A stretch of DNA of 59,429 bases, from IMG/VR virus record IMGVR_UViG_3300049913_000005, positions 1-59,429 of that record. One strand, 5' to 3'. Numbering within the stretch: position 1 is the stretch's first letter; every line of letters begins with the position of its first letter. The notes under the pieces are model-generated. The model was given only the letters and a program-made list of their open reading frames with translations. It was not told the origin of the DNA and made no database searches. Shown here one piece after another: positions 6,048 through 59,429 of this stretch. The position numbers and the translations under genes were made by a program. The DNA is from a virus (Duplodnaviria > Caudoviricetes).

Positions 6048-7840
6048 GTGTTATCTTCCACCCAATCTGTCTTCATTCCCCATCGTTCACCATGTGCGAT
6101 GCTAGCGGTGATGGGAACGGATAGCATCGTGTCATCGTTCATAATACTCGTAAGAGTATGAACGACATCATTCACATCGTCTTTTGGTACATCGAGAATG
6201 ATCTCATCGTGTACCGGCACCAACATGTACGGTCCAAGACCGGCAGCGTCAAGTTGAAGAATCTTCATCTTAAAGATCTCAGCCGCCGTACCCTGAATAA
6301 GGTAATTTACAAGTGCATACACCTTGTTAGCATCTGCTACAAAACGTCGTCCAGTTACCGGTGAGACGGCGTATGGTAGACCTTCAGTCTTCTGACGTTG
6401 CCACGCAATGTGACTTACGCCGTCTTGGAACCGTTTTACTTCAGGATAGAGTGCGTTCCATCGCTGGAAGAACGCACGTCCTCGATCTTCATCGATACCT
6501 GCAGTCTTTGAGAACTTCGGCACACTAGCACCGTAGATGGTGGCATATCCTCCGTTCTTCGTGATTTGTCGTCGCGGGTCTTTTCGCCCCAATGTAGTAT
6601 CGTCGAAGATCTGTCGCGCCAGGTTCACAAAGAAGTCGATATCGGGATTGCGGAATGCATCGATCATCGCGGTGCAGCCGGCGAATGCCGCGAGAAGACG
6701 CATCTCAATCTGACCAAAGTCACAGAGAATAAGCCGATGACCTTCACGCGCTATGACGCAGTTTCGTACAATTGCCGCGCTTGGATTACTTTCAGAACGT
6801 CGCGGAAGATTCTGTAGGTTCGGTCGTTCCATCGACATTCGACCGGTACGTGCGCCAAGTGTGTTGATTGATGGATGAATGTTCGAATCGCTATCTACTT
6901 CATCAATGAAGTGACTCAAATATGTAGATGACAACTTCTGATGCTGTCGGTAACTGAGTACAGTCTGCGCAAGAGGATGATCTATTCCGGCAAGTACCTC
7001 TTTATCGAGTGAGATTGCACCTGATGCCGTTTGTTTATTGAACTTGAACCCAGCATCTTGAAGTATCTTGACAATGGCGGCATTGCCACCAGGTCCTACA
7101 TTGTAGTTTGTCTTGATCCAAGCGGCGTGCGTAGCGACACGTTCGTCAAACTTACATTTATGATCACGAGCATAATCAACATCGATATGAACACCATGTA
7201 CCTCCATGTTCTCAATGACCCATTGAACACCGTTCTCAAGATCATATGACTTGGGATACATTTCATTAATGATAGGCGCGTGCCGTGCCTTAAGATGGCG
7301 TGTCAATACTGTATCGAGTGCAGCATACTGCCAATAAGGCCCAAACGTAAGAGGAACCGTCGCCCAGTCGAATGCGCCGCGGTTGCCAAACGCTAAGCCG
7401 AGCTGTCCCTGTGCGCCAGCCGCGAGTGCATCGATGTGACGCGCCGTCTGCGACTTCAACGCACCAGACATATGCGGTTCGAGAATGTGTGACATGACAC
7501 GTGTATCATCAATACGATGTGTTGGAACGTCGACACCGTCAGCACGCAGCATACCGTGATCGAACTTCGCATTATGCATGTCGAATCGACCTGAATATTT
7601 AGTAATGACTTCTTTGAAAAGACCACGCCAATCTTCCCATGGAATCGCCCAACCGTGTTGGAACCCACCAACTTGCGCGAGCCGAATGTGATCTTTACCA
7701 CGAACGAGACCGGTTGTCTCCGTGTCCACGGCGATACTGTCAACAGCATCTTCAGTTCCAAGCCAGCGTATCAATTCACTTGCGGTCTCGAAATCATCAA
7801 CGAGATGTAGTTCGACGTCATCAAGTCCGTGGGGAGACAA
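6044..7840 (-). CDS. polA: Family A DNA polymerase with 3'-5' exonuclease domain
   Basis: Exo DTET/HNAKFD/YAALD; TGRMS..PNLQN, motif A DFGQIEMR, motif B KNGGYATIYG, motif C VHDE. Confidence 0.95.
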   Translation of the reverse strand: MSPHGLDDVELHLVDDFETASELIRWLGTEDAVDSIAVDTETTGLVRGKDHIRLAQVGGFQHGWAIPWEDWRGLFKEVITKYSGRFDMHNAKFDHGMLRADGVDVPTHRIDDTRVMSHILEPHMSGALKSQTARHIDALAAGAQGQLGLAFGNRGAFDWATVPLTFGPYWQYAALDTVLTRHLKARHAPIINEMYPKSYDLENGVQWVIENMEVHGVHIDVDYARDHKCKFDERVATHAAWIKTNYNVGPGGNAAIVKILQDAGFKFNKQTASGAISLDKEVLAGIDHPLAQTVLSYRQHQKLSSTYLSHFIDEVDSDSNIHPSINTLGARTGRMSMERPNLQNLPRRSESNPSAAIVRNCVIAREGHRLILCDFGQIEMRLLAAFAGCTAMIDAFRNPDIDFFVNLARQIFDDTTLGRKDPRRQITKNGGYATIYGASVPKFSKTAGIDEDRGRAFFQRWNALYPEVKRFQDGVSHIAWQRQKTEGLPYAVSPVTGRRFVADANKVYALVNYLIQGTAAEIFKMKILQLDAAGLGPYMLVPVHDEIILDVPKDDVNDVVHTLTSIMNDDTMLSVPITASIAHGERWGMKTDWVEDNT

Positions 7841-8495
7841 CGACTACCTCCAACCCACAGTCGCGCATGAATTCCATCCACTTAAGCGGATCGCGATACA
7901 GTACGTGTTCTTGCGATGATGTATCGATAACAACGCGAGAAAGACCTGAGTTCGCGATCAATTTAGCGCACGTTGAACAGACAGATGACGTAACATAGAT
8001 GGTGCCGAACTGTCGTGCTGAACGATCACAGACGATAAGTGCGTTAGCCTCAGCATGTAATGACACACAATCATCATATTCTTTGTCAAGTACTGGACCG
8101 TCATAACCCCAGCATCCACACAAGCTACATGCATCTGGTGCTTCATGCGCACCGCTATGATCAATATGTATATGTCCACACTTACACATTGCGCGTGAAC
8201 GTTTACACCAGTTCACACATGGCGACGGATCAGGTCGATCACGTATGTCTTCAATTCCGCAATCATCACGGAAGAAACCCCATGGTGGACCGTTATATCC
8301 AGTCGCTACAACACGATTATCCGAGTCAATGATAACCGCACCTACTTGATCACGATTACACAATGATCTGTGTGACATCACGTGTGCGATCGCTAGCCAC
8401 GTCTGATCCCACGACGGGCGTGAGAACGGTTTCATCGGCGGATCGTTCGTCCGCGCAGACATACTGTCGGAGTTGTTCATGGTACCATGCCTCAC
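7821..8495 (-). CDS. dCMP deaminase with Cys/His-rich insertion (true start may be slightly downstream)
   Basis: RPSWD..W, QVGAVI, TGYNG, HAEANA, CSTC zinc motif. Confidence 0.9.
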   Translation of the reverse strand: MRHGTMNNSDSMSARTNDPPMKPFSRPSWDQTWLAIAHVMSHRSLCNRDQVGAVIIDSDNRVVATGYNGPPWGFFRDDCGIEDIRDRPDPSPCVNWCKRSRAMCKCGHIHIDHSGAHEAPDACSLCGCWGYDGPVLDKEYDDCVSLHAEANALIVCDRSARQFGTIYVTSSVCSTCAKLIANSGLSRVVIDTSSQEHVLYRDPLKWMEFMRDCGLEVVVVSPRT

Positions 8496-9288
8496 TTGGT
8501 GTCAGATCGTAAAACTTATCAGTATCACGTGTCGTAACATATTTCGCACGATTCATGATATGTTCAATATCGTGACCGTGTCGTCCAAACCCATGGGGGT
8601 GATACGGCAATTGTTCCGATGGCGCATGAAGTTTGTCGACATCACATAAGTTACGTTCGTATATGTGCAACGACCACACCATGTGCGTATACAACCCAGG
8701 GGGAATATTCAGCGCATTCGCCACGGTTAACTGCAATTGCGTGAACTGGAAAAGATCATACGCAAACCCAAGCCATACGTCGTTCGATCGCATCACGGTA
8801 TTCATGCATAACATACCGTCAATGATCGTAAAGTCAAACCCAACGGTGCACGGATAGTCGCGTTTCAACGGTCGATTGTCGACGTGTGGTTGCCATAGCG
8901 TTACAACGGCCTGACGTGTGTCTGGATCCTCTTGTAGCTTTCGGATGACGTGTACCAACTGATTACCGATCCGCGTGCCGTACGCACCCCAGAACTGTCC
9001 ATCCGGTTCGATGAACTTCTGGAAATTCGGTGAGATACGAAGCATGAGATTCGGATCGGAGAATCCTCCGATAAGCTGCGCAGCCTCGACCGCACCGATA
9101 GAAGGTTTGACGCCACGACCGCATGCGTACGGCAATGAATGAATCGGGTCGGTGATCTCGATGAGGGTTGGACCTACGTCACGTGTTGGAATCCCCCTGG
9201 GTGTGCGACGTGTGCCAGCATGTGCGACCCATTGTACTAACTGCCAATAGTCTTGGTATCCTGACGTAAGGTGAATGACGGACGCCAT
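8356..9288 (-). CDS. Thymidylate-synthase-fold enzyme, probably a dCMP hydroxymethylase (T4 gp42-like)
   Basis: GAYG.R, DTRQAV, catalytic DYPCT, MRSNDVWLGFAYD (Asp where ThyA has Asn), SLHIYE. Confidence 0.8.
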   Translation of the reverse strand: MASVIHLTSGYQDYWQLVQWVAHAGTRRTPRGIPTRDVGPTLIEITDPIHSLPYACGRGVKPSIGAVEAAQLIGGFSDPNLMLRISPNFQKFIEPDGQFWGAYGTRIGNQLVHVIRKLQEDPDTRQAVVTLWQPHVDNRPLKRDYPCTVGFDFTIIDGMLCMNTVMRSNDVWLGFAYDLFQFTQLQLTVANALNIPPGLYTHMVWSLHIYERNLCDVDKLHAPSEQLPYHPHGFGRHGHDIEHIMNRAKYVTTRDTDKFYDLTPSEAWYHEQLRQYVCADERSADETVLTPVVGSDVASDRTRDVTQIIV

Positions 9289-10214
9289 GATGATCTATCC
9301 TCCTGGTCATACATCGTCTTCTCAATAAGTTTACCATATCGATCACCGTTACGATAATGAAAACGACGTACAAACTGCGGATGCGGCATGGCACCGTGTT
9401 CATGCAGAAATGCGCGATGTGCTGCAGCACCAAGTGTCACCGTACATGGGCAGCCAAGCTGATGCCATAGTTCATCAGCATTGTCGACATCACATGCGTT
9501 TGAGATACCGATGTCGTATGAACCCGTGTCAAGATGAGAAAGAAGAAAATGACCAGATGTTGCGGCATATGGCATAAACGCAGGATAGTTGGTACGTGCG
9601 CTGACGCCGCGGTTCTCGCCGAGAAGTAGAAAATCTGGTTTTGGTTCACCGATATATGTTGTGAATGGTGCGAGATGCTGTACTGACTCTTCCGCGCGTT
9701 GTGCCGCAGAAATGATCGAGTCGATGTCTACGCGTACTGACTTCCATTGCAGTAATGGAAGACGTGTTCCGGCTATGGCACTGCGATATTCTTGCATCAA
9801 TGCTGGAATGTGCCCAGCACGTACAAAGTCATCACGTCCGGGGCCAACACGTGACTTCATAACGTTGATATCGTCATAAACGAAGACAACGATCGCTCCA
9901 CGTGCGCGTAGAAACAATTCGACATGCGCATTCACCGCGGGATCATATCGTGTCGGACGCCTAAAGACACGCGGATAAACAATCTCACCTAGATGCCAAC
10001 GATCACAAATGACATGCAGTTGACCCAGGGGGGAATGCGGTGATGGACGATACCCCATAAGTGGTGACTCATACTCATCGAGCGGATGCGTTGTAGGCGG
10101 ACCAGCGTGCAACTGCAACGGTGGTGATTCACCAAGTTGCACAAGACGATGTGCGAGTTTGTTACGAAGATATGACTTACCCGCGCCGTCAGGACCTTCA
10201 AGAATAATCAGCAT
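9237..10214 (-). CDS. dNMP (thymidylate-like) kinase fused to a uracil-DNA-glycosylase-like domain
   Basis: LEGPDGAGKS P-loop and CDRW; C-terminal LLGEN, F.P...SG.FL, SNA, LG..A and HPQF motifs resembling the UDG superfamily. Confidence 0.75.
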   Translation of the reverse strand: MLIILEGPDGAGKSYLRNKLAHRLVQLGESPPLQLHAGPPTTHPLDEYESPLMGYRPSPHSPLGQLHVICDRWHLGEIVYPRVFRRPTRYDPAVNAHVELFLRARGAIVVFVYDDINVMKSRVGPGRDDFVRAGHIPALMQEYRSAIAGTRLPLLQWKSVRVDIDSIISAAQRAEESVQHLAPFTTYIGEPKPDFLLLGENRGVSARTNYPAFMPYAATSGHFLLSHLDTGSYDIGISNACDVDNADELWHQLGCPCTVTLGAAAHRAFLHEHGAMPHPQFVRRFHYRNGDRYGKLIEKTMYDQEDRSSWRPSFTLRQDTKTIGS

Positions 10215-25481: not shown

Positions 25482-25485
25482 TAAC

Positions 25486-27984
25486 ATGCCGAAACGCATA
25501 CATGGTCCAAGTCATGAGCATATCGAGAAGGTCATCGCGCATAGTGACTACCTTGTCGACAAAGCGGTTACGTCGGTGTTGCGGCGGGTAGCCGCGACGC
25601 TGAGCCAAACCGCCGTACGCGCCTCCCTAGCCGCCTCAACACAGCCGTACGGGCCGACGCCTGACGATCTATCGGGGTTGTCGAGCATGTGGACTGATGA
25701 GGTTGACAATCAGTTGAATGATTACGTCACGTCGATGTATGATGAAGCTGCGTCCGCCATCGTCATGTCTATCACGTCGCTATTTCCTGTATTGAGTGTA
25801 ACGCAGATACCGCCTACAACAAGTTTCGAGATCATAATTGCGGCACGAAATCGTCTTGTAGGTGTGAGTGATCATATCTGGGAGGTAGCGCGTACCGAAC
25901 TCTCTATTGGTATGCAAAAGGGTGAATCGATTCCGCAACTTCGTAATCGCATCATTCAGTCCGCGCAGTTGTCAGCACCTCGTGCAACGACCATCGCGCG
26001 TACTGAGGTCATTGGTGCGATGAACGCGGCATCGACCACACAGGTAAAGTTCTCTGGTATGCGCGGTACGAAGGAATGGATGAGTACGCCTGATGCGCGT
26101 ACACGGCCAACGCATCGCATTGCCGCGGGGCAAACCGTCCCCCTGGGTTCTAAGTTTGCCATTGGTGATACATGGCTTGATCATCCAGGTGATCCATCTG
26201 GATCACCTGAAGAGATTGTTAACTGTCGATGTTCAATTGGATTTAACCTTGATCCACCGCATGTGGGTACCGTTGTTGCATCAGGTGGATATACGCCATA
26301 TGTTCGGCGTTGGCATTCTGAATTCTGTAAGGCACCGAAGCACCCAGGACCGTGTAAGGGTTATAAAGGTACAACTCCTACGAAAGAATCAAGTAGTGCG
26401 AAGACGACAACGACTACAGAACATCATGGTGGCGGTGGCGGTGGCGGTGTAGCGCCGGTAGCGGGTATGTCGCACGAAATATCCGCACATCCAACTATTG
26501 GTATCGATCACATTCCTGATGCCGAACAGAAAAAGATATACGATAAGTTCAAAGGTTTCACCACAAAAGGTATGTCACCGTGTTGGCCTGCATCGAAAAT
26601 CTATGACGGTGTGCAACATACAAAGACTGGCGATTCTGAACATGCGAAGTTGACAGATGCGCAGGTATTGAAAGTACTTGATAAGCAGCATGCACTTGCC
26701 GGTAAGAAGGGTGGCGAAAGTCCGTATACCGATAAGGTAACTGATTGGGTTAAGACACCAAAGGGTACGAAAGCTGTACTTGAGGCGCATGCAAATGCAA
26801 AGTCAACGCATGACACTATAACAAAGACAAATCCAGTTGCCTCACATACGGCGACTCCGCTGAAGAAAACTGTGTCTGCTGAAAAGAAAGCACCACAGAC
26901 ACATAATGAAGTAAAAACACCTACGGCTAGTACATCACATATCGGCATTCGCCCGATATCGGCGCATGAAGGTGCAGATGCATCGATTGCGCATGTGCCG
27001 CAGTCGACAAAAGATGTCGTTATTATGGCTGCGAATAAACATGGATTAAGTCCAACTTCGGAGCCATCAGAGATTTATGCTAAGACATCAGTAATGGCCG
27101 CGGTAACGGGTATGTCGCATGCTGATGTCTTGCGTGTACTAGATGAACATCATACTGCACAAAGTGGTGCTACTACTAATACGCACGCATACACCAAACG
27201 TACGGTAGATTATCTTAGTACATCTAATGGCAAAGCGCATGCAATAACCGGTAAGGCACCAACTTCGTCGATAAAGACGAAAACATCACCACCTGCGGTA
27301 TCGACACCGATGTCGCCACATAAAGGCGCAGCCGTATCGATTGTGCCAACTTCGTCATCTGTACATGAACCTTCTGGAGTACCGCAGTATAAAAATCCAT
27401 CGTATGATTCCAGCATACCAAGTAGTGAATTTGCGCATATTACGGCAAAACGAGCTGATACGCTCCAAAGTTTCGCTGAACCGTGGACCACTAAATCACA
27501 TGAGGCAATTCGGTCATATACATCCGTAGCATACGTGCCAATGAATTCGTATCTACGTACTGGGTCAACGAGTAAGTATCTACGTGAGGGATCGCCTGAA
27601 GCCAAATCGATGATTGATGAAGTTCATCATGTGCAAGCTGCTATGCGGCCAATTCCTCAACATGTACTAACATCACGTGGTACAAATTTGCGCGCATTTG
27701 GTATAGCAAATGGCGCAGAATTGCATGCACTTGTTGGTAAAACTGTACAAGATAAAGGATTTACTTCGACATCATATAGCCAACGTAGTTTCGTTGGCGA
27801 AGTAAAAATGAAAATTGAAGTACCTAAGGGCACACATGGTGCATTTGTTAGTGCCGTTTCTGAGCATGAAAATGAAAATGAACTACTTTTAGCTGCTGGT
27901 ACGAAATTTCGTATTTTAGCAGTTACACCACCGACAAGTTCAAAAGGAGCATGGCGTGTTCGTGCTCGAGTTGTAGGAGATTGA
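25486..27984 (+). CDS. MuF-like minor head protein fused to a C-terminal VIP2-type ADP-ribosyltransferase
   Basis: IARTE, KEW, D.RTRPTH, PGDP....EE.VNCRC (MuF); YT...Y..MN.YLR, RG, GFTSTS, EVPKG, ENELLL (R-S-E ART). Confidence 0.88.
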   Translation: MPKRIHGPSHEHIEKVIAHSDYLVDKAVTSVLRRVAATLSQTAVRASLAASTQPYGPTPDDLSGLSSMWTDEVDNQLNDYVTSMYDEAASAIVMSITSLFPVLSVTQIPPTTSFEIIIAARNRLVGVSDHIWEVARTELSIGMQKGESIPQLRNRIIQSAQLSAPRATTIARTEVIGAMNAASTTQVKFSGMRGTKEWMSTPDARTRPTHRIAAGQTVPLGSKFAIGDTWLDHPGDPSGSPEEIVNCRCSIGFNLDPPHVGTVVASGGYTPYVRRWHSEFCKAPKHPGPCKGYKGTTPTKESSSAKTTTTTEHHGGGGGGGVAPVAGMSHEISAHPTIGIDHIPDAEQKKIYDKFKGFTTKGMSPCWPASKIYDGVQHTKTGDSEHAKLTDAQVLKVLDKQHALAGKKGGESPYTDKVTDWVKTPKGTKAVLEAHANAKSTHDTITKTNPVASHTATPLKKTVSAEKKAPQTHNEVKTPTASTSHIGIRPISAHEGADASIAHVPQSTKDVVIMAANKHGLSPTSEPSEIYAKTSVMAAVTGMSHADVLRVLDEHHTAQSGATTNTHAYTKRTVDYLSTSNGKAHAITGKAPTSSIKTKTSPPAVSTPMSPHKGAAVSIVPTSSSVHEPSGVPQYKNPSYDSSIPSSEFAHITAKRADTLQSFAEPWTTKSHEAIRSYTSVAYVPMNSYLRTGSTSKYLREGSPEAKSMIDEVHHVQAAMRPIPQHVLTSRGTNLRAFGIANGAELHALVGKTVQDKGFTSTSYSQRSFVGEVKMKIEVPKGTHGAFVSAVSEHENENELLLAAGTKFRILAVTPPTSSKGAWRVRARVVGD

Positions 27985-27985
27985 T

Positions 27986-28624
27986 ATGACGACGCCATTG
28001 ACTGATCCTGACAATGCACAGTTTGATATCGTTGATGACACAGGTTTTACAACTGAACAAGCTGTCGCATTTCTTGAAGGTCGACTTAACCTGGACACAC
28101 TTGTCATTAATGAGTCATCAGTCGACGATAAAGGTGTGATGATCGCACTTCGTATGACTGATTACGATGCAAACCGACTGATCATCCCAAGGGGTGAACC
28201 AGCATCTGCATTGCATTTAACGTTGTTTTATCTTGGGAATGCCGCAGACTTTTCCGCCGATACGTACGCGCAGGTGACGGATTACTGCACACGTGTTGCG
28301 AATGATTTTGGTCTCATGGAAGGCAATGTATTCGGTGCCGCCATTTGGAACCCAGACGGTAATGAGCCATCCATCATCGTAAACGTTGGCGGATGCGATT
28401 GTTTCGAAGAGATTCACGACGCCATAGGTGCTGGACTGCCCGCGGTACTTGGTCAACCACTACCGGAACAGCATTCCCCCTGGGTTCCGCACGTGTGTCT
28501 AGCATACTCTGGTGACACGACACTTCTTGAGACGGCGAAGACACGCACCGGTGCGATAGAGTTTGATCGACTCAGAGTAGCCTTCGGACCGCAACACACA
28601 GACATACCATTGTCGGGGGATTAA
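27986..28624 (+). CDS. 2H phosphoesterase (2'-5' RNA ligase / Acb1-like)
   Basis: LHLTLFYLG and PHVCLAY histidine motifs. Confidence 0.75.
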   Translation: MTTPLTDPDNAQFDIVDDTGFTTEQAVAFLEGRLNLDTLVINESSVDDKGVMIALRMTDYDANRLIIPRGEPASALHLTLFYLGNAADFSADTYAQVTDYCTRVANDFGLMEGNVFGAAIWNPDGNEPSIIVNVGGCDCFEEIHDAIGAGLPAVLGQPLPEQHSPWVPHVCLAYSGDTTLLETAKTRTGAIEFDRLRVAFGPQHTDIPLSGD

Positions 28625-43195: not shown

Positions 43196-43286
43196 TATGA
43201 ATACATGCACATATGCATATATCATTGCTACGAATATGTGATATTATACAAATAATATCGAATACATATAACTATGAAGGACGCAA

Positions 43287-43992
43287 TGTGCGTGCTATTA
43301 TCTTCGCAGGTGGATCTGCGACACGATGGCGCAATCATCTAGGTGTGCCAAAACATTTAGCGCCATTCCCACGCAATGCAGATGGTGATACCGAACGTCT
43401 TATCGATCGGACAGCACGACAATTACATGAGCATAATGTGCATGATATTAATATCATTGCACCCCCCAATGATCCACGATACATGATCCAGGGGGGTGGT
43501 ACAACATTGCATCCACGCACACTTAAATTGTCTGATAACGGTTGTGACGTGTGGTTACGTTCATCATCATTGTGGAGTATCACCGGACGAACACTTGTAT
43601 TACTTGGTGATGTTCGATTTACAGATGATGCTATGGATCATATTACGCAGTCGTATGACGACTGGACATTCTTTTGCCGACTCGGTGCATCTGCGCTTAC
43701 AGGATGCGCATGGGGTGAAGACTTTGGATGCTCATTTCTGCCAGAACATCATGAAGAGTGGCTTCAGGCGTTAACATATGTGTCTAATCTTTATCGTAAA
43801 GATGAACTTGACCGCGCCGGTGGATGGGAAGCATGGCAGTGCATGGGAGGTGAATGCAGCCCACAGATTCCGCCAGTAGAACCACCTGATCCGCGTGTTG
43901 TTTATATTGATGACTTGACTGATGATATCGACTTCGTTGAAGACTGGCGCCGACTTACCAATAAGATTCGAGAAATGAATGAGTATGACTAA
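43287..43992 (+). CDS. Sugar-phosphate nucleotidyltransferase (NTP_transf-like)
   Basis: AIIFAGGSATRW...PKHL, LLGDV, DIDF; GTG start after AAGGA. Confidence 0.75.
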
Positions 43993-44596
43993 TAATCGTA
44001 TCACCGTAGTGACAGCGTCGATCCCCATTCGGTATGCATTGCTTACGCGTGCCGTGCATTCTGCAGCGACACAGACACAGAAGCCGCACGCATTATCGAT
44101 CGCAATCGATACCGCGCGAGAAGGTGCACCCGCAACGCGGCAACGTGCACTTATGGCTGTTAACCCGAAGGAAACCCCCTGGGTGGCCATTCTTGACGAC
44201 GATGATGAGTTTATGCCGCATCATCTTGACCATCTACTGCAGTTTGCAAAAGATGGAGATTATGACTTCGTATACTCATGGTTTAAGATCGTAGTTGGAC
44301 GAAAGATCTATGACTATGATCCTGTGTTTCCAAAGACACATTTTACTGAACCATGGGATCCAGCGAATCCGCGTCATACGACGGTTACGACACTTGTAAA
44401 GACGGAACTTGCGCAGACCGTAGGATACAACACACCAGACGTACGCGACGCTACAGCACGTGCACGCAACACGGATGAAGACTGGCGTTTCGTACTTGAA
44501 TGCAATCGGCTTGGTAAGATTGGACATCTTGTCGAGCACACGTGGTATTGGCATCATGACAGTGAGAATACGTCGGGTCTTCCGAGTCGGTGGTAG
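43979..44596 (+). CDS. GT2-family glycosyltransferase
   Basis: ITVVTASIP.R, G...TR, ILDDDD, EDW. Confidence 0.85.
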   Translation: MSMTNNRITVVTASIPIRYALLTRAVHSAATQTQKPHALSIAIDTAREGAPATRQRALMAVNPKETPWVAILDDDDEFMPHHLDHLLQFAKDGDYDFVYSWFKIVVGRKIYDYDPVFPKTHFTEPWDPANPRHTTVTTLVKTELAQTVGYNTPDVRDATARARNTDEDWRFVLECNRLGKIGHLVEHTWYWHHDSENTSGLPSRW

Positions 44597-44598
44597 TT

Positions 44599-44775
44599 AT
44601 GCGTCTTCGTAGGTATGAGTTCACACGATGGGCTGCAAATAAGACATCCGTTGAGGTCGAACGAGTTGAATTCACTCATAATGGTGACATTGTGTTCTGG
44701 ACCGGAGATATCTTAATATTGGCGGTTAAATTCGGTGATTGGAACAATCTTCATGAGGTAATCGACACAGAATGA
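44599..44775 (+). CDS. Hypothetical protein
   Basis: Short ORF coupled between the two glycosyltransferases. Confidence 0.45.
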   Translation: MRLRRYEFTRWAANKTSVEVERVEFTHNGDIVFWTGDILILAVKFGDWNNLHEVIDTE

Positions 44776-45848
44776 AAATTTATGTCTATCCCGCAGATAT
44801 ACATGGTTGCGGTTATTATCGTCTCATCTGGGCGTCACGTGAACTTCAACGTTTAGGTCATGATGTGTCACTTGAGATGCCAGGTGCGCATCCGCGACTC
44901 GATGTTGTAATGGAAGGTAACAAGCCGAAAGAAGTTCATATACCACAAGATGCCGATGTCATGGTCTTTCAACGTGTGACGCATAGTTATCTTGCGAACG
45001 CAATTTCGATTATGCGTAATCATGGTGTTGCAGTTGTTGTCGATGTGGATGACGATCTCGCACGTCTTCATACTGAGAACGGCGCATTTGATGCCATGCA
45101 TCCGCGAAATCTTCGTTCCGGTACATCGCAACATTCGTGGCATATGCTCGAGAAAGCATGTCAAGATGCAACACTTGTGACTACGTCAACAGACACGTTA
45201 GCACAACGATACGCAAAACATGGTCGATACTGTGTCATTCCGAATTACATTCCGCGACGATATCTCACTATTCCACATATCGATACAGATATGATCGGGT
45301 ACCCAGGATTACTGTCGACGCATGCAAATGATGTTGAGATACTTGGGTCATCAATCGCACGACTTATGCATGATGGTCATGATTTCATGACAATCGGTGA
45401 CACAAGTGGTATTGATCGCACACTTAATCTACCACGCGCACCAATCTCGCATGGACCTGCCGATCTCGCACAGTGGCCCACAGCACTTACCACCATCGGA
45501 ATTGGTTTGGCGCCACTTGCCGATACGGAATTTAACCGTTCTAAGTCGTGGCTTAAAATGATGGAGATGGCGGCAGTTGGCGTGCCATGTGTTGGTTCAC
45601 CACGACGTGAATATATGAAGTTGCACAAGCAATATGGCATCGGTGTGCTAGCGGAGAAACCAAAACATTGGTACGCAACTGTGCGACGACTAGTAAATAA
45701 CACTACAGAACGCACAGACTTGTCATTGCGCGGGTATGAAGGTGTTCGACGACTTATACTCGAAGAACATGTAAGTGAGTGGCTTGCCGCATGGATGACC
45801 GCACGCGACATTGAGATCGGTCTAGCGGTGCCGCGAGCGGGTCGTTAG
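44772..45848 (+). CDS. GT-B (GT4-like) glycosyltransferase
   Basis: GCGYYR, FQR, DVDDDL, IPNY, IGLAPL...FN.SKS.LK.ME...G.P. Confidence 0.85.
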   Translation: MKIYVYPADIHGCGYYRLIWASRELQRLGHDVSLEMPGAHPRLDVVMEGNKPKEVHIPQDADVMVFQRVTHSYLANAISIMRNHGVAVVVDVDDDLARLHTENGAFDAMHPRNLRSGTSQHSWHMLEKACQDATLVTTSTDTLAQRYAKHGRYCVIPNYIPRRYLTIPHIDTDMIGYPGLLSTHANDVEILGSSIARLMHDGHDFMTIGDTSGIDRTLNLPRAPISHGPADLAQWPTALTTIGIGLAPLADTEFNRSKSWLKMMEMAAVGVPCVGSPRREYMKLHKQYGIGVLAEKPKHWYATVRRLVNNTTERTDLSLRGYEGVRRLILEEHVSEWLAAWMTARDIEIGLAVPRAGR

Positions 45849-48356: not shown

Positions 48357-48905
48357 TTACCGGATGAACTTGAAAGTCTCCGCGTAGTCGAAGTCCGATC
48401 CACCCAGGTCGACATACCGTAGTTCGGCACGCCGTGCCATCAGTAGCGTACCGAGCCAGTTACGACCCGGCATACTCGGGGCACGAAGATCGATGCCCCA
48501 CACAGTGTCGCCCCAGTACGTTCCCTCCACCAGCATGGCGTCACCTGTGCCGAGAAGATGTTGACCCTCGGCGCGGTCGGGCTGGAACTTGACCGCCAGC
48601 ACAGCGCGCATTACGTCATACTTGATCAGTTCCCATTCCTCGCGGAGCTGGACTTGTCGGCCAATCTGCTTCGCCTTCCCAGGTGTGTCGGCCTTCGCGA
48701 TGAGCGTGTGATCCTCCGCTGTGTTTGCTTTGAACGCTTGGAACATGTGTTCGCCAGTTCGGTAAACGAATCCGGTACCCGGGAAGATCAACGGGTCACC
48801 AACGTAGAAGTTACTAAGGAAGTGATCTGGGTTCGGGCCGTTGAAGTCGTCGAACCAGCGAATGGTCTTGGCAAACTGCTCGATGGTCTTCGGTTCCTGC
48901 TTCAT
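48357..48905 (-). CDS. NADAR (YbiA-like) family protein
   Basis: FLSNFY, T.EH.FQA.K, AK..GR, W...K..VM, L..TG...LVE...D..WG, G.N.LG..LM. Confidence 0.9.
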   Translation of the reverse strand: MKQEPKTIEQFAKTIRWFDDFNGPNPDHFLSNFYVGDPLIFPGTGFVYRTGEHMFQAFKANTAEDHTLIAKADTPGKAKQIGRQVQLREEWELIKYDVMRAVLAVKFQPDRAEGQHLLGTGDAMLVEGTYWGDTVWGIDLRAPSMPGRNWLGTLLMARRAELRYVDLGGSDFDYAETFKFIR

Positions 48906-52939: not shown

Positions 52940-54541
52940 CTATACAGACGGGTCAGGCTGTTCCGTAATCATTGGCGTGCATACGGACCAACGGTGCGCA
53001 CCGGTCGCATGTTCGCGCTTGATTCGTCCGTCACGCCGCAGCCGATAGAGCGACAGATAAACAAAGTTTGCGCCGAGTTCGGTTCCCTCGGCGATCTCTG
53101 TACGCGTCTTTGCGCCGTCCTGTGCTGTCATCCAGTCGTATACCTGCTCATCGCGAGTAATAGTCTCGCTGGGACGCGGACGTCCCTGACGCCGGTGTGC
53201 CGTAGTTCCGGTGTCTGCGGCCTCAGTGGTTGGCGTCTCAGTGGTCGACACCTCAGTGTCATTCATTCTAGTTACTCCTAACGTGATTTTCGCAACGCGT
53301 GTAACTCTATCACGTGTTGCGACAGACTTACGTCCATCGGTAAAATTAATGTCAAACTCACGATCACCGATACATTCACCATGATAAAGATCAGGTAAAC
53401 CGTTAAGCGCATGTTGAAGTGCAGTTCCGATCCACTTACCGCACTGTACAGTGATACCTTTCCCCCACGTCATCGTGAGTCCAGGATGATGACGTAGTGG
53501 CGCAATCTTCCAGTCATCCGGAAAACCCATGATACGTGCGGTTTCACGGTGCGTTAACATACGATCAAGTTGTGGATGCATCGCGCAGCACATCGCCGCA
53601 CCTGTGACGACGCGTGACGGTCGATTACCATTCCATCGTGTTGGTGTCGTATATCCGAGTTGAAAGTCACTCTTAACGACTTTCTCCTCCGTATACTTCC
53701 ACGAATCAGGAAGCTTCGCGTATGCGTCCCAATACCGTCGTGCCACAATCGCAAGATGTTCGTCTGGGTGCCACGCAACACCGTGTGTTAAGTCAACACA
53801 TCGTTGAGCTAATGGCGTGTCACGTGTGATATGCCCGTCCACAACCCCCTGGGTAGATACGACATGTTGATTCACCCAGGGGGAAGGTTCACGGTTATAT
53901 GGCTGTGCATCCCATGACATCTCAAGATTAATGAGATCGCCGATTGCATCATTCAGTATGATGTTACCGTTGGTAAGCGTATCGGGATCGACACCGAACG
54001 GGATACGTGATGCAATCCAGAAATATCGTCGACGTTCGGCGACACCGCCGACGAATCTGGCGTTATGCCGAACATGGTAGAGCGTCCACGATTCGTCCGT
54101 CAGGTCTTCCAATTTCGCGCGCAGTTGACGCATCAGGCCCAGTCCGTCTGACCTGGTACGGGCCATTTGAACCGACTCAAACACCACGATCTGTGGTCGT
54201 ACCCGCGCGGCGTATTCAATCAGACGCCACATGCACGCGTTGATTGGAGAATCGGCACCTCTGAATTCATGGTTCGACATGACACTAAATCCGGAGCATG
54301 GCGGATTGCCAAACACGACATCAGCATCGACCGTCGACCACGCTTCAGTCGATGTAGCATTTCGTGGAAGCGTTTCGGCTTTCCAATCATTCCCAAGAAT
54401 GTGACGATTAGCTTCGCAGCTGGCGACACCGAATCCGCCGTATAGTTCACGTTTACCGACAAGACTGAATCCAGCTTGCACCATTCCAGTGGTAAAACCG
54501 CCGGCAAAACCCATGATGTCAACGGCACGATACATGATCAC
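52940..54541 (-). CDS. DNA cytosine-C5 methyltransferase homologue with in-frame C-terminal winged-HTH
   Basis: GNPPCSGFS (IV), FESV (VI), RRRYF (VIII), LT.RE.AR.MGFPD (IX); C-terminal TRTEIAE...VYLSL.RL...G. Confidence 0.85.
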   Translation of the reverse strand: MIMYRAVDIMGFAGGFTTGMVQAGFSLVGKRELYGGFGVASCEANRHILGNDWKAETLPRNATSTEAWSTVDADVVFGNPPCSGFSVMSNHEFRGADSPINACMWRLIEYAARVRPQIVVFESVQMARTRSDGLGLMRQLRAKLEDLTDESWTLYHVRHNARFVGGVAERRRYFWIASRIPFGVDPDTLTNGNIILNDAIGDLINLEMSWDAQPYNREPSPWVNQHVVSTQGVVDGHITRDTPLAQRCVDLTHGVAWHPDEHLAIVARRYWDAYAKLPDSWKYTEEKVVKSDFQLGYTTPTRWNGNRPSRVVTGAAMCCAMHPQLDRMLTHRETARIMGFPDDWKIAPLRHHPGLTMTWGKGITVQCGKWIGTALQHALNGLPDLYHGECIGDREFDINFTDGRKSVATRDRVTRVAKITLGVTRMNDTEVSTTETPTTEAADTGTTAHRRQGRPRPSETITRDEQVYDWMTAQDGAKTRTEIAEGTELGANFVYLSLYRLRRDGRIKREHATGAHRWSVCTPMITEQPDPSV

Positions 54542-55104
54542 ATTCTATCAAGTTGGTCAAGATAGGTTTTCACCACGGGCGGAAGTTCGCTATCACATCC
54601 ACCACAAATATAGATCGTCTTACCGTCATAACCGCGTATTTCATGCACGACAACATCAGTGACATCACGATTACAATGCGCACATTTGCTTGAGATACCG
54701 TCATAACCGATAGCTTGCCGTTTAGCGTTTACATCACATTTACTCATGTATGCACGATAGAAATCACGTGCAATATCTTCAGGTGCAAGATCTGGTTTAA
54801 TCACAAGTAAGAGATTCATGATGAAGTGCCAACAGTCAACGAGTTCGCCAAAGAATGCACCATCATTGATAAAGAGATTGTCATCAGTCGTGAGCCACGG
54901 TTTCCATGAACATTCTTGCAGCACCTCAGCCTGTAGTTCATTGCTCAATGACAGTACCATGTCACGAATGTATATGATGCGTTCATGAAGTGTCATCGAT
55001 GAGAACGTAAAGCCGAATTTAGTTTGAAGTTCTTTTTGTGCCTGAATCATAACGGAAAGACGATCAAGTGACAGATACTCAGACAGTTCAGGTTCATTTG
55101 TCAT
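54538..55104 (-). CDS. All-alpha dNTP pyrophosphatase (dimeric dUTPase / T4 gp56 dCTPase-like) with zinc-ribbon tail
   Basis: Q..LQ, E...E, WKPW, ELVD.WHF, Y..K...N..RQ..GY. Confidence 0.85.
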   Translation of the reverse strand: MTNEPELSEYLSLDRLSVMIQAQKELQTKFGFTFSSMTLHERIIYIRDMVLSLSNELQAEVLQECSWKPWLTTDDNLFINDGAFFGELVDCWHFIMNLLLVIKPDLAPEDIARDFYRAYMSKCDVNAKRQAIGYDGISSKCAHCNRDVTDVVVHEIRGYDGKTIYICGGCDSELPPVVKTYLDQLDRM

Positions 55105-56552
55105 GCTGATGTCAATCCTAACTGTTTCTCGATAAGTCGTTCGGTGTAATGTTTATTCCATCGCCGCGCGAGCAGATTACGTTGCCAATCGGTAATGACA
55201 CGCCAGGTAACTGGTCCCATCATATCAACACGTTCACTTAGTTCACTTGGCATGTCGACTCGAAGCCATGCCGCGAGCCAGAGATCTTCTTCAGTCCAAT
55301 CGTCACGAATCGAGTAGAAGTTTCGTCCATTCACCTGACCGACGTAATGCGTGCCGTCATTGTGGCAACGCGTCGGAATAATCCATCCTTGTTCGTCAAG
55401 TTGTTCGATCATAAAACAAACGGTACGTGCCGCAAAGCACTGGAATGGTTTCGCCGTCGACCAACCAGTATCGAGTGGTGGTAACGCTATCGTGCATCGC
55501 CACCGATTGAGATGGCTTGGAAACTCGTGAGGTGGTCTGCGCGCCACTGGGTGATCGGCAATATCAACGAGACTGACCGCATCCCATTTGCCGAATACCT
55601 CGACATCTGGCCATGCATTAACCAGATAGTCACGAACATACTCTGAACGTCGACGTCTTCCTACGTTGAATGATGTGGTGGCAACACCGATCGTCTGGCG
55701 ATCATCATAGCCTGCTGGACCCCACGTCTCCCAGTCGTCTGGAAGAATCATCAATTCAAGTCCACCATACCTATATGTATGACGAACACGCCACAAATTA
55801 CTATGACATGCATCACTATCCGTCTCTGCAATATCGCTAAAGTTTAGAGAATATGGCGTACGCGCGTCACCGTGACGATCATGTCGTTGGTGTCGTTGGT
55901 ACTCGTATTGCGCAAGTATGTTACCCAATCCAGTGGGCCATTTAACAGATCGTGTCTTAAGGTAGTTGCGTGGGTCTGTGACAATCCATGCGACAGGTGC
56001 TCGACCGTTCGTACGGTCTCCGAGTCTATTGAGTCCATCAACAAGAAATTCTTCGTAGTTCCTTGTCCAAGCTTGTGGGTTTGTTCCATATGTGACGGGA
56101 TCAATGGCGACATCATCCCATGTATGTCCGATAAGTGGGATAACACCACTGCACGTTCCGTGCTGTCCTACATGGACGATCATACCGTCAAGTTCGGCAA
56201 TCATTCGTGTAACGTCACGTGCGGTGTTGTACGATCGCATATCATTGATAAGATATGATGGACTATTTTCAATCGTAATCATACTAGACATACGATCTGG
56301 CTTTACTGAGTTAATGTGCTGTACTGGACCGTTTCGGAACCAGTCAGCATCTACCGGCCAGGGATTAGTGATGTTGGCTGGCAACCCCTGGGTGCACCGG
56401 TCGTTCTTGCCTACGATGACCCACTCTACATCTGGGTTACGTTCAGCCAATCGAAGAAGCAAGTTGGGTGCCTCGGCATCGCCCTGAAATCCGAACTTCG
56501 TACGATCGAACTCCATGCAACGACCAAGTTTGGCATAGCCGATACGTGTCAT
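55101..56552 (-). CDS. T4 beta-glucosyltransferase-like DNA base glycosyltransferase
   Basis: VTDPR (cf. BGT FTDIR catalytic Asp), RRRRSE, EVFGKW, CF...LD.Q..I, LRV..PSEL.ERV, WQR.LL, collinear with BGT as I recall its sequence. Confidence 0.7.
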   Translation of the reverse strand: MTRIGYAKLGRCMEFDRTKFGFQGDAEAPNLLLRLAERNPDVEWVIVGKNDRCTQGLPANITNPWPVDADWFRNGPVQHINSVKPDRMSSMITIENSPSYLINDMRSYNTARDVTRMIAELDGMIVHVGQHGTCSGVIPLIGHTWDDVAIDPVTYGTNPQAWTRNYEEFLVDGLNRLGDRTNGRAPVAWIVTDPRNYLKTRSVKWPTGLGNILAQYEYQRHQRHDRHGDARTPYSLNFSDIAETDSDACHSNLWRVRHTYRYGGLELMILPDDWETWGPAGYDDRQTIGVATTSFNVGRRRRSEYVRDYLVNAWPDVEVFGKWDAVSLVDIADHPVARRPPHEFPSHLNRWRCTIALPPLDTGWSTAKPFQCFAARTVCFMIEQLDEQGWIIPTRCHNDGTHYVGQVNGRNFYSIRDDWTEEDLWLAAWLRVDMPSELSERVDMMGPVTWRVITDWQRNLLARRWNKHYTERLIEKQLGLTSA

Positions 56553-58105
56553 GATGTGAGATCTTTCATCCAGGTCTCAGCCATATCGATAAGGTATGTG
56601 GTAAGTGGTTCAGGATGCAATGGTGCGCAATTGATAAGAGAGATCACACCAATCATCTCGATATCGCGAAGATTAAGTTCATTGCAGTTACGTATGAATT
56701 CTCGAATCATTTCGAGGTAGTCACGGCCTTCAACCCAGGGGGTAAAGTTACCGTGACGCACACGTTCCCAATGAACAACACATCCAGCCATTAACTTGGC
56801 GAGATCGTATCGCAGATCACCCCACGGGTTACCTTCAAAGTCTGAGCGCCAGTCGATTCCGATCGGTGTGTTGTAGACGTCATCGTTACGTTCCCATGGA
56901 ATGATGATGATGTTACCGAAGTTAAAATCACCATGTGCTGGGCCGGATAGAACACCACGCGCGATGTCGTCCCAACGAACACACATCAATATGTGCTTTG
57001 CACGTCGCTGCAATTCCGCAGGTAGCGTCGCGATACGGTTCATCGTTTTATCAAAGTAAAAGCGACGTGTGGTGTGCACTATGTCATCGGTTGCACATGC
57101 ATTTGGTATACGAATGGGCCAGATAATCGACGCCCATGCGTCCAAAATTTGTTGCACGATCCAATACTCATTCATTACGATTGCTTTATACGCCGTGACA
57201 CCTGGGGCATATTCATATGCAAGCATATTCATATTATGCTCGCACGTATCAATGAGACTGGGCACGAACGAGTCAAGAATGTCACAACGATCACGACTGA
57301 TACTGGTCATAAGCGGGTCAGCGTACCATTTAATGACACGACCGATCTCCGGTAGTACGTATGTCGCTTGTCGTTCCTTCGACCAGTCGATGCCTTCGCG
57401 TCGCACAACTTCATTGTGGTATGACGTGGCGTCGCCGACATCAGTCCAGTCAATGTGCATCACTTTTAACGGTGAACCTAACGCAGACAGCGCGATAAAT
57501 CCACCAGATACCTGTACCTCATTGTCGATCGACTCGCCGGATGCAACACCGGTCCAGAAGTCATCGAGGTCTTCACGAACGACTTGTGCTAATCCCGTGT
57601 ATACATACTGCTCAAATCCATGAAAACCTTCGTGCCCACTGACTGGTTTTTTATCAAGTATCTCGATGATGTCGCTATTGTTGGCGTAGACCCGGCACCA
57701 ACGTTCAGGTTTTGTATTATGCGGAATCGGCGCAACTGCGGCCCACGATGACGTACGCGTCCACATGGTTTCATCACGTCGCCAGAGCGTGTCACACGAT
57801 GTAAAGATCATATCTTCATCGCCAACGACGTGACGCGCTATCAGCAATGATCCCCCTGGGCCGATTGGGTTATCGTCTGTGACGAACTCGATCGGCGTAA
57901 ACGGGTGCGCCAGCCGCGTATACTCCTTGATCTGGCCACCATTATGACCAATCACAATGATGATGCGCGAACCGTATGGCGCGAGATCAATGATATGCGA
58001 AAGAACAGCCTTACCGCCCAGGGGGACAAGGGCCTTATGCAATGATTTACCGACACGCCCGATACGACTGCCTTTACCCGCGGCGAGAATCACAAATGCT
58101 GTCAC
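56549..58105 (-). CDS. Sugar nucleotidyltransferase fused to an APH/choline-kinase-like sugar kinase
   Basis: ILAAGKGSR....K.L.P, SCD, DKKP, W.DVG; C-terminal HGDFNFGNI, IDWR, GD.RYDLAKL. Confidence 0.85.
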   Translation of the reverse strand: MTAFVILAAGKGSRIGRVGKSLHKALVPLGGKAVLSHIIDLAPYGSRIIIVIGHNGGQIKEYTRLAHPFTPIEFVTDDNPIGPGGSLLIARHVVGDEDMIFTSCDTLWRRDETMWTRTSSWAAVAPIPHNTKPERWCRVYANNSDIIEILDKKPVSGHEGFHGFEQYVYTGLAQVVREDLDDFWTGVASGESIDNEVQVSGGFIALSALGSPLKVMHIDWTDVGDATSYHNEVVRREGIDWSKERQATYVLPEIGRVIKWYADPLMTSISRDRCDILDSFVPSLIDTCEHNMNMLAYEYAPGVTAYKAIVMNEYWIVQQILDAWASIIWPIRIPNACATDDIVHTTRRFYFDKTMNRIATLPAELQRRAKHILMCVRWDDIARGVLSGPAHGDFNFGNIIIIPWERNDDVYNTPIGIDWRSDFEGNPWGDLRYDLAKLMAGCVVHWERVRHGNFTPWVEGRDYLEMIREFIRNCNELNLRDIEMIGVISLINCAPLHPEPLTTYLIDMAETWMKDLTS

Positions 58106-58503
58106 GCGTCCGCCCTACCATATGAGTCATTTACACGATGAATGTCATCGTCACCACCGACACATACCTCGAGATACAGTAGTTCACCAATAACCTGATG
58201 CAAGAAACCTGGCTCGATCGTCGTACCGGTTACAGCATTCGCGGTCGTTACGCCGTCTTGCTCAACAATACGTCCGTTACCTTCGCACGGGAATAGCATC
58301 TCGACCTTCTCGTCGTGATACTGCATCGACGTGCACTGCTCATGCTTGACGTGGATGACCTTCAGTTTCAGTTCATCGCCGATTTCAATGATATACTCAT
58401 GCCCCCACGGTTTCTCGACGCGTCGAATCGTCGCTTCGCGAAGCATCTCAATAAGTATGATACCAAGATGTTTAGCCAGCCCTGATCGCTGCACGAATAA
58501 CAC
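58102..58503 (-). CDS. Cupin sugar-phosphate isomerase (type II mannose-6-P isomerase C-terminal-like); start probably 58446
   Basis: VEKPWGHE, S.QYH..K.E, H, D..R..D.YGR. Confidence 0.8.
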   Translation of the reverse strand: MLFVQRSGLAKHLGIILIEMLREATIRRVEKPWGHEYIIEIGDELKLKVIHVKHEQCTSMQYHDEKVEMLFPCEGNGRIVEQDGVTTANAVTGTTIEPGFLHQVIGELLYLEVCVGGDDDIHRVNDSYGRADA

Positions 58504-59389
58504 TCCTTACATATTCTTCACGTGGTGTATCAAGCGTGCAGATTTCTTTTACCTCAGGTTCATTGAGAATGTATCGTACGCCGCACTTTGCATGATCATA
58601 CTTACTACCGACATACAGTCCATTCTGTTGCGTGTCAAACCATCGCTTCCAGTGACCTGCGGCATATGCACGATCAAGCAACTCACGCGTAATGTCAAAG
58701 TCAAGTACGTCCAGAAGCGCTTCCGTCTCTACGAGTGCAAGTTCAGGTGCAAGGTTGTAGTAATCGAGTACATCATCGAACCTATTACGGTTACCGACCC
58801 AGTCCATGTTATGCGCTTTTAATGCAATGTCGTTGTCATACGCGAATCGTGCATAACGACGAAGTAAGTTGACCGATATCGGCGTACCGCACTGTCGATC
58901 GTTTCTCACTAATGTACCGATCGAGACAACAGCCGCCGCGATACGATCAGTATCGACAACCACAAACGCCGTTGCGAGTAAGTCATCATTGTGATCTTGA
59001 GAGATATGTTCGCCACCGATATCGAACATTACGTTAGCATCATGGTAGCATTGAAGTATCGCCATCTGCGCTCGAAGTGTCGACGCCCATGAGTCGTATG
59101 TCGCAGCAGTGACATCTACGTGAAGAATATCGAATCCAGCCTCGATGTCGGCATCGAATGATGCGAAACCGTCATCGCCTTTGCCACTCTGGTTAGGTCC
59201 GCCATGGTCACGGACAATCTTCGTACTAAATGAGTGATACCGAACGATGTCGACAAGTTCCCCCTGGGTTAACCCAGTGTAACCGCCGTCGATATCCACT
59301 TGTCGACGCGATGCAATGATCTGCGTGACGTTCAGTTTTGCGGCTTCCTCAATGACTCGCAGTGATGTCGCACCCACGCATAAACGCAT
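58472..59389 (-). CDS. GatZ/KbaZ-like tagatose-phosphate epimerase (aldolase-fold)
   Basis: ASRRQVD..GGYTG, RDHGGP, GFD.LH.D, K.HN.D, N.APE. Confidence 0.75.
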   Translation of the reverse strand: MRLCVGATSLRVIEEAAKLNVTQIIASRRQVDIDGGYTGLTQGELVDIVRYHSFSTKIVRDHGGPNQSGKGDDGFASFDADIEAGFDILHVDVTAATYDSWASTLRAQMAILQCYHDANVMFDIGGEHISQDHNDDLLATAFVVVDTDRIAAAVVSIGTLVRNDRQCGTPISVNLLRRYARFAYDNDIALKAHNMDWVGNRNRFDDVLDYYNLAPELALVETEALLDVLDFDITRELLDRAYAAGHWKRWFDTQQNGLYVGSKYDHAKCGVRYILNEPEVKEICTLDTPREEYVRSVIRAAIRAG

Positions 59390-59429
59390 TCTTCACCTCA
59401 TCCATGAGTTCTTGCGTCGTCTGGTTAGT

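Follow-up and report, generated by a model that had tools for sequence, protein, structure and literature searches.

What does a homolog of the DNA cytosine C5-methyltransferases do when its base-side catalytic residues are intact and the side that would hold S-adenosylmethionine (SAM) has been rebuilt? The question is raised by a gene on the minus strand of the IMG/VR virus record IMGVR_UViG_3300049913_000005 (Duplodnaviria; Caudoviricetes), which was analysed over all of its 59,429 nucleotides (hereafter the window). Its product, the methylase-like protein, belongs to a virus-dominated family of 207 clusters (E ≤ 1e-30) that is defined by these motif changes, and it is encoded in the company of genes for a nucleotide-level pathway to 5-hydroxymethylcytosine (hmC). 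We tentatively favour the reading that the enzyme acts through its cysteine on cytosine or hmC of phage DNA, by chemistry other than methyl transfer. A more specific proposal, which we regard as possible but somewhat unlikely, is that it is a dedicated natural enzyme for the cofactor-free, 'atypical' chemistry of C5-methyltransferases, forming either a new hypermodified cytosine or post-replicative hmC without SAM or TET.

The open reading frame (ORF) of the methylase-like gene encodes 533 residues if it starts at a GTG codon (54541) that shares nucleotides with the stop of the gene upstream, and 531 if it starts at an ATG codon at 54535; the shorter form is the protein-database entry P0001. 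The initial annotation had the gene run from 54541 to 53267, but the frame stays open to 52940. Just past the annotated end, an in-frame ATG, preceded by AGGAG, opens another 108 residues, in which a winged-helix domain and the motif GRPRP are found. The remodelled motifs I, VI and X and the retained PPC and motif VIII arginines that it had described are all present, on the minus strand, where it had placed them (Table 1). An AlphaFold2 model built from a 28-sequence alignment (mean predicted local distance difference test [pLDDT] 81.9; predicted template-modelling score [pTM] 0.71) matches DNMT1/MET1 first in a Foldseek search of the PDB (E ~3e-19), and also the prophage methylase 3g7u, M.HaeIII and M.HhaI; the model and these matches together give the protein a C5-methyltransferase fold. 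With M.HhaI and M.HaeIII (PF00145) it shares, besides the fold, the order of motifs I to X, the Pro-Cys cysteine, the motif VI Glu, the motif VIII Arg-x-Arg and motif IX. When M.HhaI and M.HaeIII were aligned to a family profile with HMMER, C81 and E119 of M.HhaI paired with the catalytic Cys and the motif VI Glu and R163/R165 with the two retained arginines, while DLFAGLGGF paired with D-x-x-G-F-A-G-G-F, PCQ with PCS, ENV with ESV, and GNSV with GKGI. Thus neither the adenosine pocket (F-x-G-x-G in motif I, with an acid followed by an aromatic residue in motif II) nor the PCQ/ENV/GN methyl-transfer site has its usual form: the former reads x-G-F-A-G-G, and the latter PCS/ESV/GK throughout the family.

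In a word-indexed search for relatives, 8000 candidates were scored and 1104 of them reached E ≤ 1e-5; identity was 48% or higher throughout the top 120. An exhaustive profile search of 50%-identity representatives gave 4130 proteins at E ≤ 0.001, of which 874 reached E ≤ 1e-10 and 207 reached E ≤ 1e-30. The 150 best representatives listed were aligned with P0001 to make 151 rows, which include fragments; gapped rows are left out of each count, and M.HhaI positions are in brackets. The catalytic cysteine (C81) is Cys in 129/131, the motif VI acid (E119) is Glu in 144/145, and the motif VIII arginines (R163 and R165; R168 and R170 in the window protein) are Arg in 146/150 and 150/150, respectively. 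The residue after Pro-Cys (Q82) is Ser in 118/131, the second residue of motif VI (N120) is Ser in 138/145, and the motif X position (N304) is Lys in 140/146 and Arg in three. In motif I, the aromatic position (F18) is occupied by Gln (65), His (18), Tyr (10), Met (9), Glu (9) or Asn (7) among 127 rows, and the first Gly (G20) is replaced by Phe (79), Leu (39) or Tyr (7), that is, by one of these three in 125/127. The motif II acid (E40) is not universal (Glu in 92/130), and the position after it (W41) is mostly non-aromatic, with Leu, Met, Gly, Asp, Gln and His commonest among 121 rows; the adenine-stacking residues of M.HhaI and M.HaeIII therefore mostly have non-aromatic counterparts. In M.HhaI, F18, G20, E40 and W41 all contact SAM. 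The motif III position (D60) is Gln in 53 and Glu in 44 of 128. The family also has a block of its own, GGFG...N-R, in which the Asn of NR is invariant (130/130), and, as a further difference from M.HhaI and M.HaeIII, its target-recognition region is conserved: it can be aligned from member to member, and 11 of its columns reach 80% or more.

Five members (from the window, Micrococcus phage Kurnik, Gordonia phage GodonK and the IMG/VR loci L045 and L053) were aligned with four phage methylases from outside the family, the nearest of that kind in the tblastn list. All four controls are canonical (F-x-G-x-G-G, PPCQ, ENV, GN), and all five members have the variant pattern, Kurnik and GodonK also being without the motif II acid. 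The variants are thus family-wide, not the quirk of one gene nor chance, and the contrast between remodelled cofactor-side motifs and retained catalytic machinery, first drawn for a single protein, is true of the whole family. Two peptide patterns searched against 185,579 prokaryote species (one genome each) found no family members, the nearest Protein Atlas clusters are 98–100% viral and carry only the generic name 'Dcm', and no restriction partner was seen for the family. Our literature search found no publication describing it; in the accessible part of the paper on phage GMA2 the gene is named merely as a putative methylase. An Fe-S or Zn site built from four conserved cysteines was considered for the window protein and ruled out, as Cys40 and Cys365 vary outside the close clade.

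One alternative is an ordinary C5-methyltransferase that uses SAM and whose motifs have drifted in this lineage, providing back-up 5-methylcytosine on unreplaced cytosines or at particular sites. The fold, the complete set of base-side catalytic residues, the motif II Glu of the window protein and a Pfam PF00145 score of 73.7 bits (threshold 22) would all agree with this, and orphan methylases are reportedly common in phages. However, the protein scores 43.7 bits against the NCBIfam dcm model (TIGR00675; threshold 100.65), the first Gly of FxGxG is almost always replaced by Phe, Leu or Tyr, both adenine-stacking positions are mostly non-aromatic, and the Q82, N120 and N304 equivalents are replaced throughout the family, whereas all four controls retain them. 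Q82 and N304 of M.HhaI are reportedly the residues that were opened to admit larger cofactors, and are said to keep in place the water molecule by which the C5 proton is removed. Changes at the three positions, together with a degraded adenosine pocket, speak against simple transfer of a methyl group and, with less force, against an adenosyl cofactor of any kind. Drift would also leave the hmC-pathway company and the kinase fusion described below unexplained, and we regard this alternative as unlikely, although it carries appreciable weight.

The Lys in motif X could point instead to a SAM derivative such as carboxy-S-adenosylmethionine (Cx-SAM), the enzyme then being a transferase that turns residual cytosine into 5-carboxymethylcytosine or a base of similar kind. 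According to the accessible part of its description, CmoX (PDB 8YF3) is a phage DNA cytosine C5-carboxymethyltransferase with an SPPC motif, with Arg350 at the position of M.HhaI Asn304 and with CmoA encoded alongside; Arg350 binds the carboxylate of Cx-SAM, and CmoX, as a user of an adenosyl cofactor, keeps Phe25, Glu47, Phe48 and Asp69 (PMC12783734). For M.MpeI, the accessible text reports that a cationic side chain at N374 supports the use of Cx-SAM best (PMC13288465). The family shares with CmoX and the engineered M.MpeI N374K the C5-methylase fold and a cationic residue exactly at this position, where in both of those enzymes it selects a carboxymethyl donor, and the smaller Ser residues at the Q82 and N120 positions would suit a Lys-type counterpart of these enzymes. 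The Q82A/N304A changes in M.HhaI are likewise said to widen its pocket. However, in place of SPPC and Arg, by which PMC12783734 searched for CmoX, the family has NPPC and Lys (with Arg in the three rows noted above), and Phe25 and Phe48 of CmoX have no aromatic counterparts here, the adenosine-binding aromatics having been lost. CmoA (TIGR00740) was detected in none of five phage records including the window, with the E. coli positive control detected, the accompanying pathway being one for hmC nucleotides rather than CmoA/CmoY; an amide ligase, which usually accompanies CmoA in such phages, was absent from Pfam scans of the 57 window ORFs, and CmoX (8yf3) comes only at rank 50 in the Foldseek list. 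We consider Cx-SAM or a similar donor improbable.

The genes around the methylase-like gene point to hmC. The thymidylate synthase (TS) homolog of the window has the CMP 5-hydroxymethylase MilA as its best PDB match (2.7e-18) and, in E. coli ThyA numbering, has Asp at 143 (L143D) and 177 (N177D) and keeps Asp169. In the part of PMC13326640 that is accessible, N177D marks the use of dCMP, L143D/E a hydroxymethyl product and D169N the 5-hydroxy-dCMP synthases, so that the window homolog has the features given there for a 5-hydroxymethyl-dCMP synthase. Two genes upstream of the methylase-like gene lies that of a 483-residue protein which has no Pfam match; its AlphaFold2 model (pLDDT 81.7, pTM 0.85) finds the T4 β-glucosyltransferase (BGT) structures 1nzd/1bgt/1qkj as top Foldseek matches (E 7e-8 to 2.5e-7), with AGT (1xv5) also among the matches. 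The T4-style hmC gene set that the initial annotation had proposed is therefore borne out by the TS signature and by the fold of this neighbor, and the premise of hmC-DNA is reasonable. The set also includes a kinase-like protein, a dUTPase_2/MazG-like candidate dCTPase and a dCMP deaminase. From this gene set, the DNA of the window phage most likely contains glycosylated hmC. The set parallels gp42, gp1, gp56, Cd and the α/β-glucosyltransferases of T4. To our knowledge T4 has no C5-methylase-like component, whereas here there is one, and it is conserved more strictly than the glycosyltransferase is.

Comparison of 68 loci that carry the family (66 from IMG/VR, with Kurnik and GodonK; homologs by tblastn at E ≤ 1e-5) links the methylase-like gene to the nucleotide-level pathway. 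A MazG-like gene is present in 60/68, in most cases as the immediate upstream neighbor of the methylase-like gene, and replication genes in 33–54 of 68. The 10-kb flanks contain a TS homolog in 10 loci; when whole records were searched it was found in 14/15, including all six rated at least 90% complete, and the sole negative record is rated 64% complete. The hydroxymethylase signature occurs in all 15 aligned co-occurring TS homologs, Thymidylate_kin is found in a matching position in L045, L051 and L053, and the best named-phage matches of the window TS homolog (DSL-LC01, Phendrix, GodonK, Sixama, Mareelih, Forza, BlueNGold, Boopy and GMA2) carry the methylase-like gene. Homologs had been suggested to sit always beside BGT-like genes, but a BGT-like gene accompanies the family in 49/68 loci and was absent from all five distant records, of which two have a completeness rating of 100%, although other glycosyltransferase families are possible there; these distant lineages do have the kinase, TS-like, deaminase, MazG and methylase-like genes. 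The methylase-like enzyme is thus associated more closely with hmC formation at the nucleotide level than with glycosylation. The sugar-nucleotide genes of the window are rarer still (nucleotidyltransferase/kinase-like gene in three of the 68 loci, cupin in none, 305-residue protein in one). These genes and a HAD hydrolase gene, which likewise has homologs in at most three loci, occupy the interval between the DUF669 and BGT-like genes (56549–59389 and 47–610); relatives hold other genes there (a NAD-dependent epimerase in L003), which suggests different sugars on their DNA.

A nucleotide-level origin of hmC also separates the window from the pathway of C5-methyltransferase, TET/5mYOX and glycosyltransferase in the accessible part of PMC8256090, with which it has in common a cytosine methylase homolog beside DNA glycosyltransferases. 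The dioxygenase that this pathway requires, Tet_JBP (PF12851), was not detected in any of the five records, a search in which the control genomes were silent too.

The same company could be read in the opposite sense, with the enzyme directed against cytosine-containing (host) DNA, for example as a methylase descendant that deaminates cytosine without a cofactor or traps DNA covalently; the phage would be spared because its own DNA carries hmC. Such a role would explain why the family is rare without the hmC pathway and absent from cellular genomes, it would suit a Lys positioned where C5 could receive a proton, and C5-methylases deprived of SAM reportedly deaminate cytosine to uracil. However, fusions to DNA-tailoring domains (of O-methyltransferase type, and a kinase of hydroxymethylated DNA) indicate the phage's own DNA, one family-bearing record (G017) is classed as a provirus, and nothing observed speaks for a host target directly; the probability that we give this role is low.

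These fusions came from a survey of the 19 representatives longer than about 540 residues. In ten of them a class I methyltransferase domain is fused at the C-terminus (seven FkbM, three Methyltransf_23/UbiG-like), and five further proteins of 946–1008 residues also have a Methyltransf_23 fusion. One representative, P0255, has the helical domain of a 5-hmdU DNA kinase (5e-40), and the kinase fusion recurs in a metagenome relative (L074, 5.7 kb; 7.7e-36). FkbM- and UbiG-type enzymes methylate hydroxyl groups, and the 5-hmdU DNA kinase family, going by its Pfam name, phosphorylates the 5-hydroxymethyl group in DNA. The Ser/Ser/Lys signature is present in most of the fused proteins; among the exceptions, P0144 has Thr in place of the first Ser, and P0239 has Arg and Met. 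P0255 had no viral contig matches, L074 is without modification genes beside the fusion, and the kinase domain was found in none of five records (the window and four relatives). The remaining long representatives include one with a TrmB/MarR winged helix and one with an intein. As to whether the fused class I domains might be CmoA-like Cx-SAM synthases, this was ruled out, the FkbM/UbiG-type models matching and CmoA giving no match; an apparent fusion of MazG and methylase in L047 was likewise rejected because the reference contains three stop codons. The window itself encodes a Methyltransf_24/CmcI-like protein (rhamnosyl O-methyltransferase-type; 10881–11465) in the same minus-strand block, without homologs in the 68 loci, which may parallel the O-methyltransferase domains fused to methylase-like proteins elsewhere.

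The winged-helix tail is a fusion/fission partner of the methylase-like core: among the 68 loci it is fused in 19, encoded by a separate downstream ORF in 18 (adjacent in 16, about 4.6 kb away in two) and undetected in 31, and the tail of the relative P0125 matches TrmB/MarR_2. Its frequent presence would be expected if the protein were a non-catalytic DNA-binding or regulatory factor in which the methylase fold persists and the tail does the work. The near-invariance of the catalytic cysteine, the motif VI Glu and both arginines across clusters below 50% identity argues against this, as does the tail being undetected in nearly half of the loci, and we consider such a role very improbable.

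We return to an active enzyme with non-methyl chemistry. The near-obligate hydroxymethylase company, the hydroxyl-acting fusions and the alignable target-recognition region argue for action on the phage's own DNA and for cytosine hydroxymethyl chemistry. Work of the Klimasauskas laboratory reportedly showed that C5-methyltransferases in vitro can add aldehydes to cytosine, remove formaldehyde from hmC and exchange the hydroxyl of hmC with thiols. These cofactor-free reactions require what the family has retained, the attack of Cys at C6 of a flipped cytosine or hmC, and not what it has lost; as described, they differ in being test-tube side reactions of SAM enzymes. We know of no natural enzyme dedicated to them, and found none in the literature. 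From the fold, motif changes, conservation, gene company and fusions, all directly observed, we infer the substrate and each chemical step as follows. In the preferred version, the parts for base flipping and C6 attack (the PPC cysteine, motif VI Glu and motif VIII Arg-x-Arg) would serve unchanged beside the rebuilt SAM-holding side, and the substrate would be hmC in phage DNA. The cysteine would add to C6 of hmC, the Lys at the Asn304 position and the two Ser at the Gln82 and Asn120 positions would handle the CH2OH group, either as it stands or once activated, and the hydroxymethyl group would then be exchanged or derivatised. In a second version, leftover cytosine would be converted to hmC using a donor other than SAM.

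Several points weigh against non-methyl chemistry. The protein passes the PF00145 threshold, and that SAM may not be its cofactor is a conclusion read from the alignment alone. The Glu retained in motif II, in this protein as in most rows, together with the Gln or Glu at the D60 position, makes altered adenosine binding possible, and because the methyltransferase domains in the fusions use SAM, an ordinary methylase could simply be sharing its cofactor with them. The analysis identified neither another donor nor a nucleophile, an enzyme consuming hmC would compete with the neighboring glycosyltransferase, and the T-even phages make hmC-DNA without any such enzyme.

Table 1. Positions of the methylase-like gene, its motifs and the associated genes in the window.
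Feature	Positions	Strand	Evidence
Methylase-like protein, whole open frame	52940..54541	−	Pfam PF00145, E 2.4e-20, residues 5–376
C5-methyltransferase-fold core, residues 1–425	53267..54541	−	AlphaFold2 (pLDDT 81.9) and Foldseek matches
Motif I variant DIMGFAGGF; non-aromatic at HhaI F18 position, Phe at G20 position	54494..54520	−	
Motif II GKRE, then family-specific block GGFGVASCEANRH	54401..54457	−	
Motif IV GNPPCSGFS; catalytic Cys retained, Gln of PCQ replaced by Ser	54284..54310	−	
Motif VI FESV; Glu retained, Asn replaced by Ser	54170..54181	−	
Motif VIII ERRRYFW; both arginines retained	54017..54037	−	
Motif IX HRETARIMGFPDDW	53510..53551	−	
Motif X TWGKGITV; Lys at M.HhaI Asn304 position	53447..53470	−	
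Internal in-frame AGGAG (53279–53275) and ATG (53266–53264) at core/tail junction	53264..53280	−	
GRPRP motif and winged-helix tail	52982..53185	−	AlphaFold2 helices/strands, residues 456–518; phrog_1123
dCMP deaminase	7821..8495	−	Pfam PF00383, 1.1e-14
TS homolog, dCMP-hydroxymethylase signature	8356..9288	−	Best PDB match MilA
Kinase-like protein, thymidylate-kinase-like P-loop N-terminus	9237..10214	−	phrog_761, 1.4e-11; TIGR00041, 3.7e-4
dUTPase_2/MazG-like nucleotide pyrophosphohydrolase, candidate dCTPase	54538..55104	−	PF08761, 8.2e-08; phrog_18650
GT-B glycosyltransferase, T4 BGT-like fold, 483 residues	55101..56552	−	AlphaFold2 and Foldseek
Sugar-1-phosphate nucleotidyltransferase with C-terminal kinase-like part	56549..58105	−	Pfam NTP_transf_3, NTP_transferase; NCBIfam GlmU/MurU-type N-terminal
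Cupin (mannose-6-P isomerase C-terminal-like) and 305-residue protein	58102..59389	−	

The window is a complete virus record, with an exact direct terminal repeat of 127 nucleotides (1–127 and 59303–59429), and its early minus-strand block runs across the record ends. The order in this block is kinase-like protein, TS homolog and dCMP deaminase, then DNA polymerase A, SNF2 helicase, PD-(D/E)XK nuclease, AAA_24, DUF669 and HAD hydrolase, and then the 305-residue protein, cupin, nucleotidyltransferase/kinase-like protein, 483-residue protein, dUTPase_2/MazG-like protein and methylase-like protein. The C-terminal part of the nucleotidyltransferase is presumably kinase-like, a reading taken from the motif HGDFNFGN. 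A megablast search of the region against named phages gave no matches.

The window also contains an iterated 10-mer, CCCCCTGGGT, in 35 copies (22 on the plus and 13 on the minus strand, e.g., 1593–1602) where 0.03 would be expected; two lie inside the methylase-like gene, at 53845–53854 (plus) and 53874–53883 (minus). Related motifs are enriched at 1.9–7.6 per 10 kb across about nine relatives, with a central C (ACCCAG[C]GG) in L003, L006 and L007 and a central T (ACCCAG[T]GG) in L010, L011, L012, L029, L032 and L047. The suggestion that the enzyme acts at this motif does not hold as a family property, since such motifs are enriched in the window and these relatives and are missing from the majority of the remaining loci with the enzyme. 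As a target of the enzyme the motif is unsupported family-wide, and it is a feature separate from it.

Elsewhere in the window, an NTP_transf_3 gene, a GT2 glycosyltransferase gene and a further ORF directly follow the tail genes (43213–45848), the latter two being conserved in 20/68 and 23/68 loci; these genes may glycosylate virion proteins rather than DNA. A MuF-like head protein with a C-terminal ADP-ribosyltransferase domain (PF03496, 2e-22) is encoded at 25474–27984, a 2H/2'-5' RNA ligase-like protein directly after it at 27986–28624, and a NADAR-domain protein at 48357–48905.

DNA-modifying enzymes of phages, such as BGT, TET and the carboxymethyltransferases, have repeatedly been a source of new base chemistry and of sequencing tools. 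The changes that define this family fall on positions which decide the group that is transferred: that of M.HhaI Asn304 and, as engineering work reportedly showed, that of Gln82. Cultured phages that carry the gene exist (Kurnik, GodonK and GMA2), which makes direct testing possible. If its product proves to be new, the family would add a cytosine modification pathway, and may provide a sequence-independent enzyme for marking cytosine or hmC.

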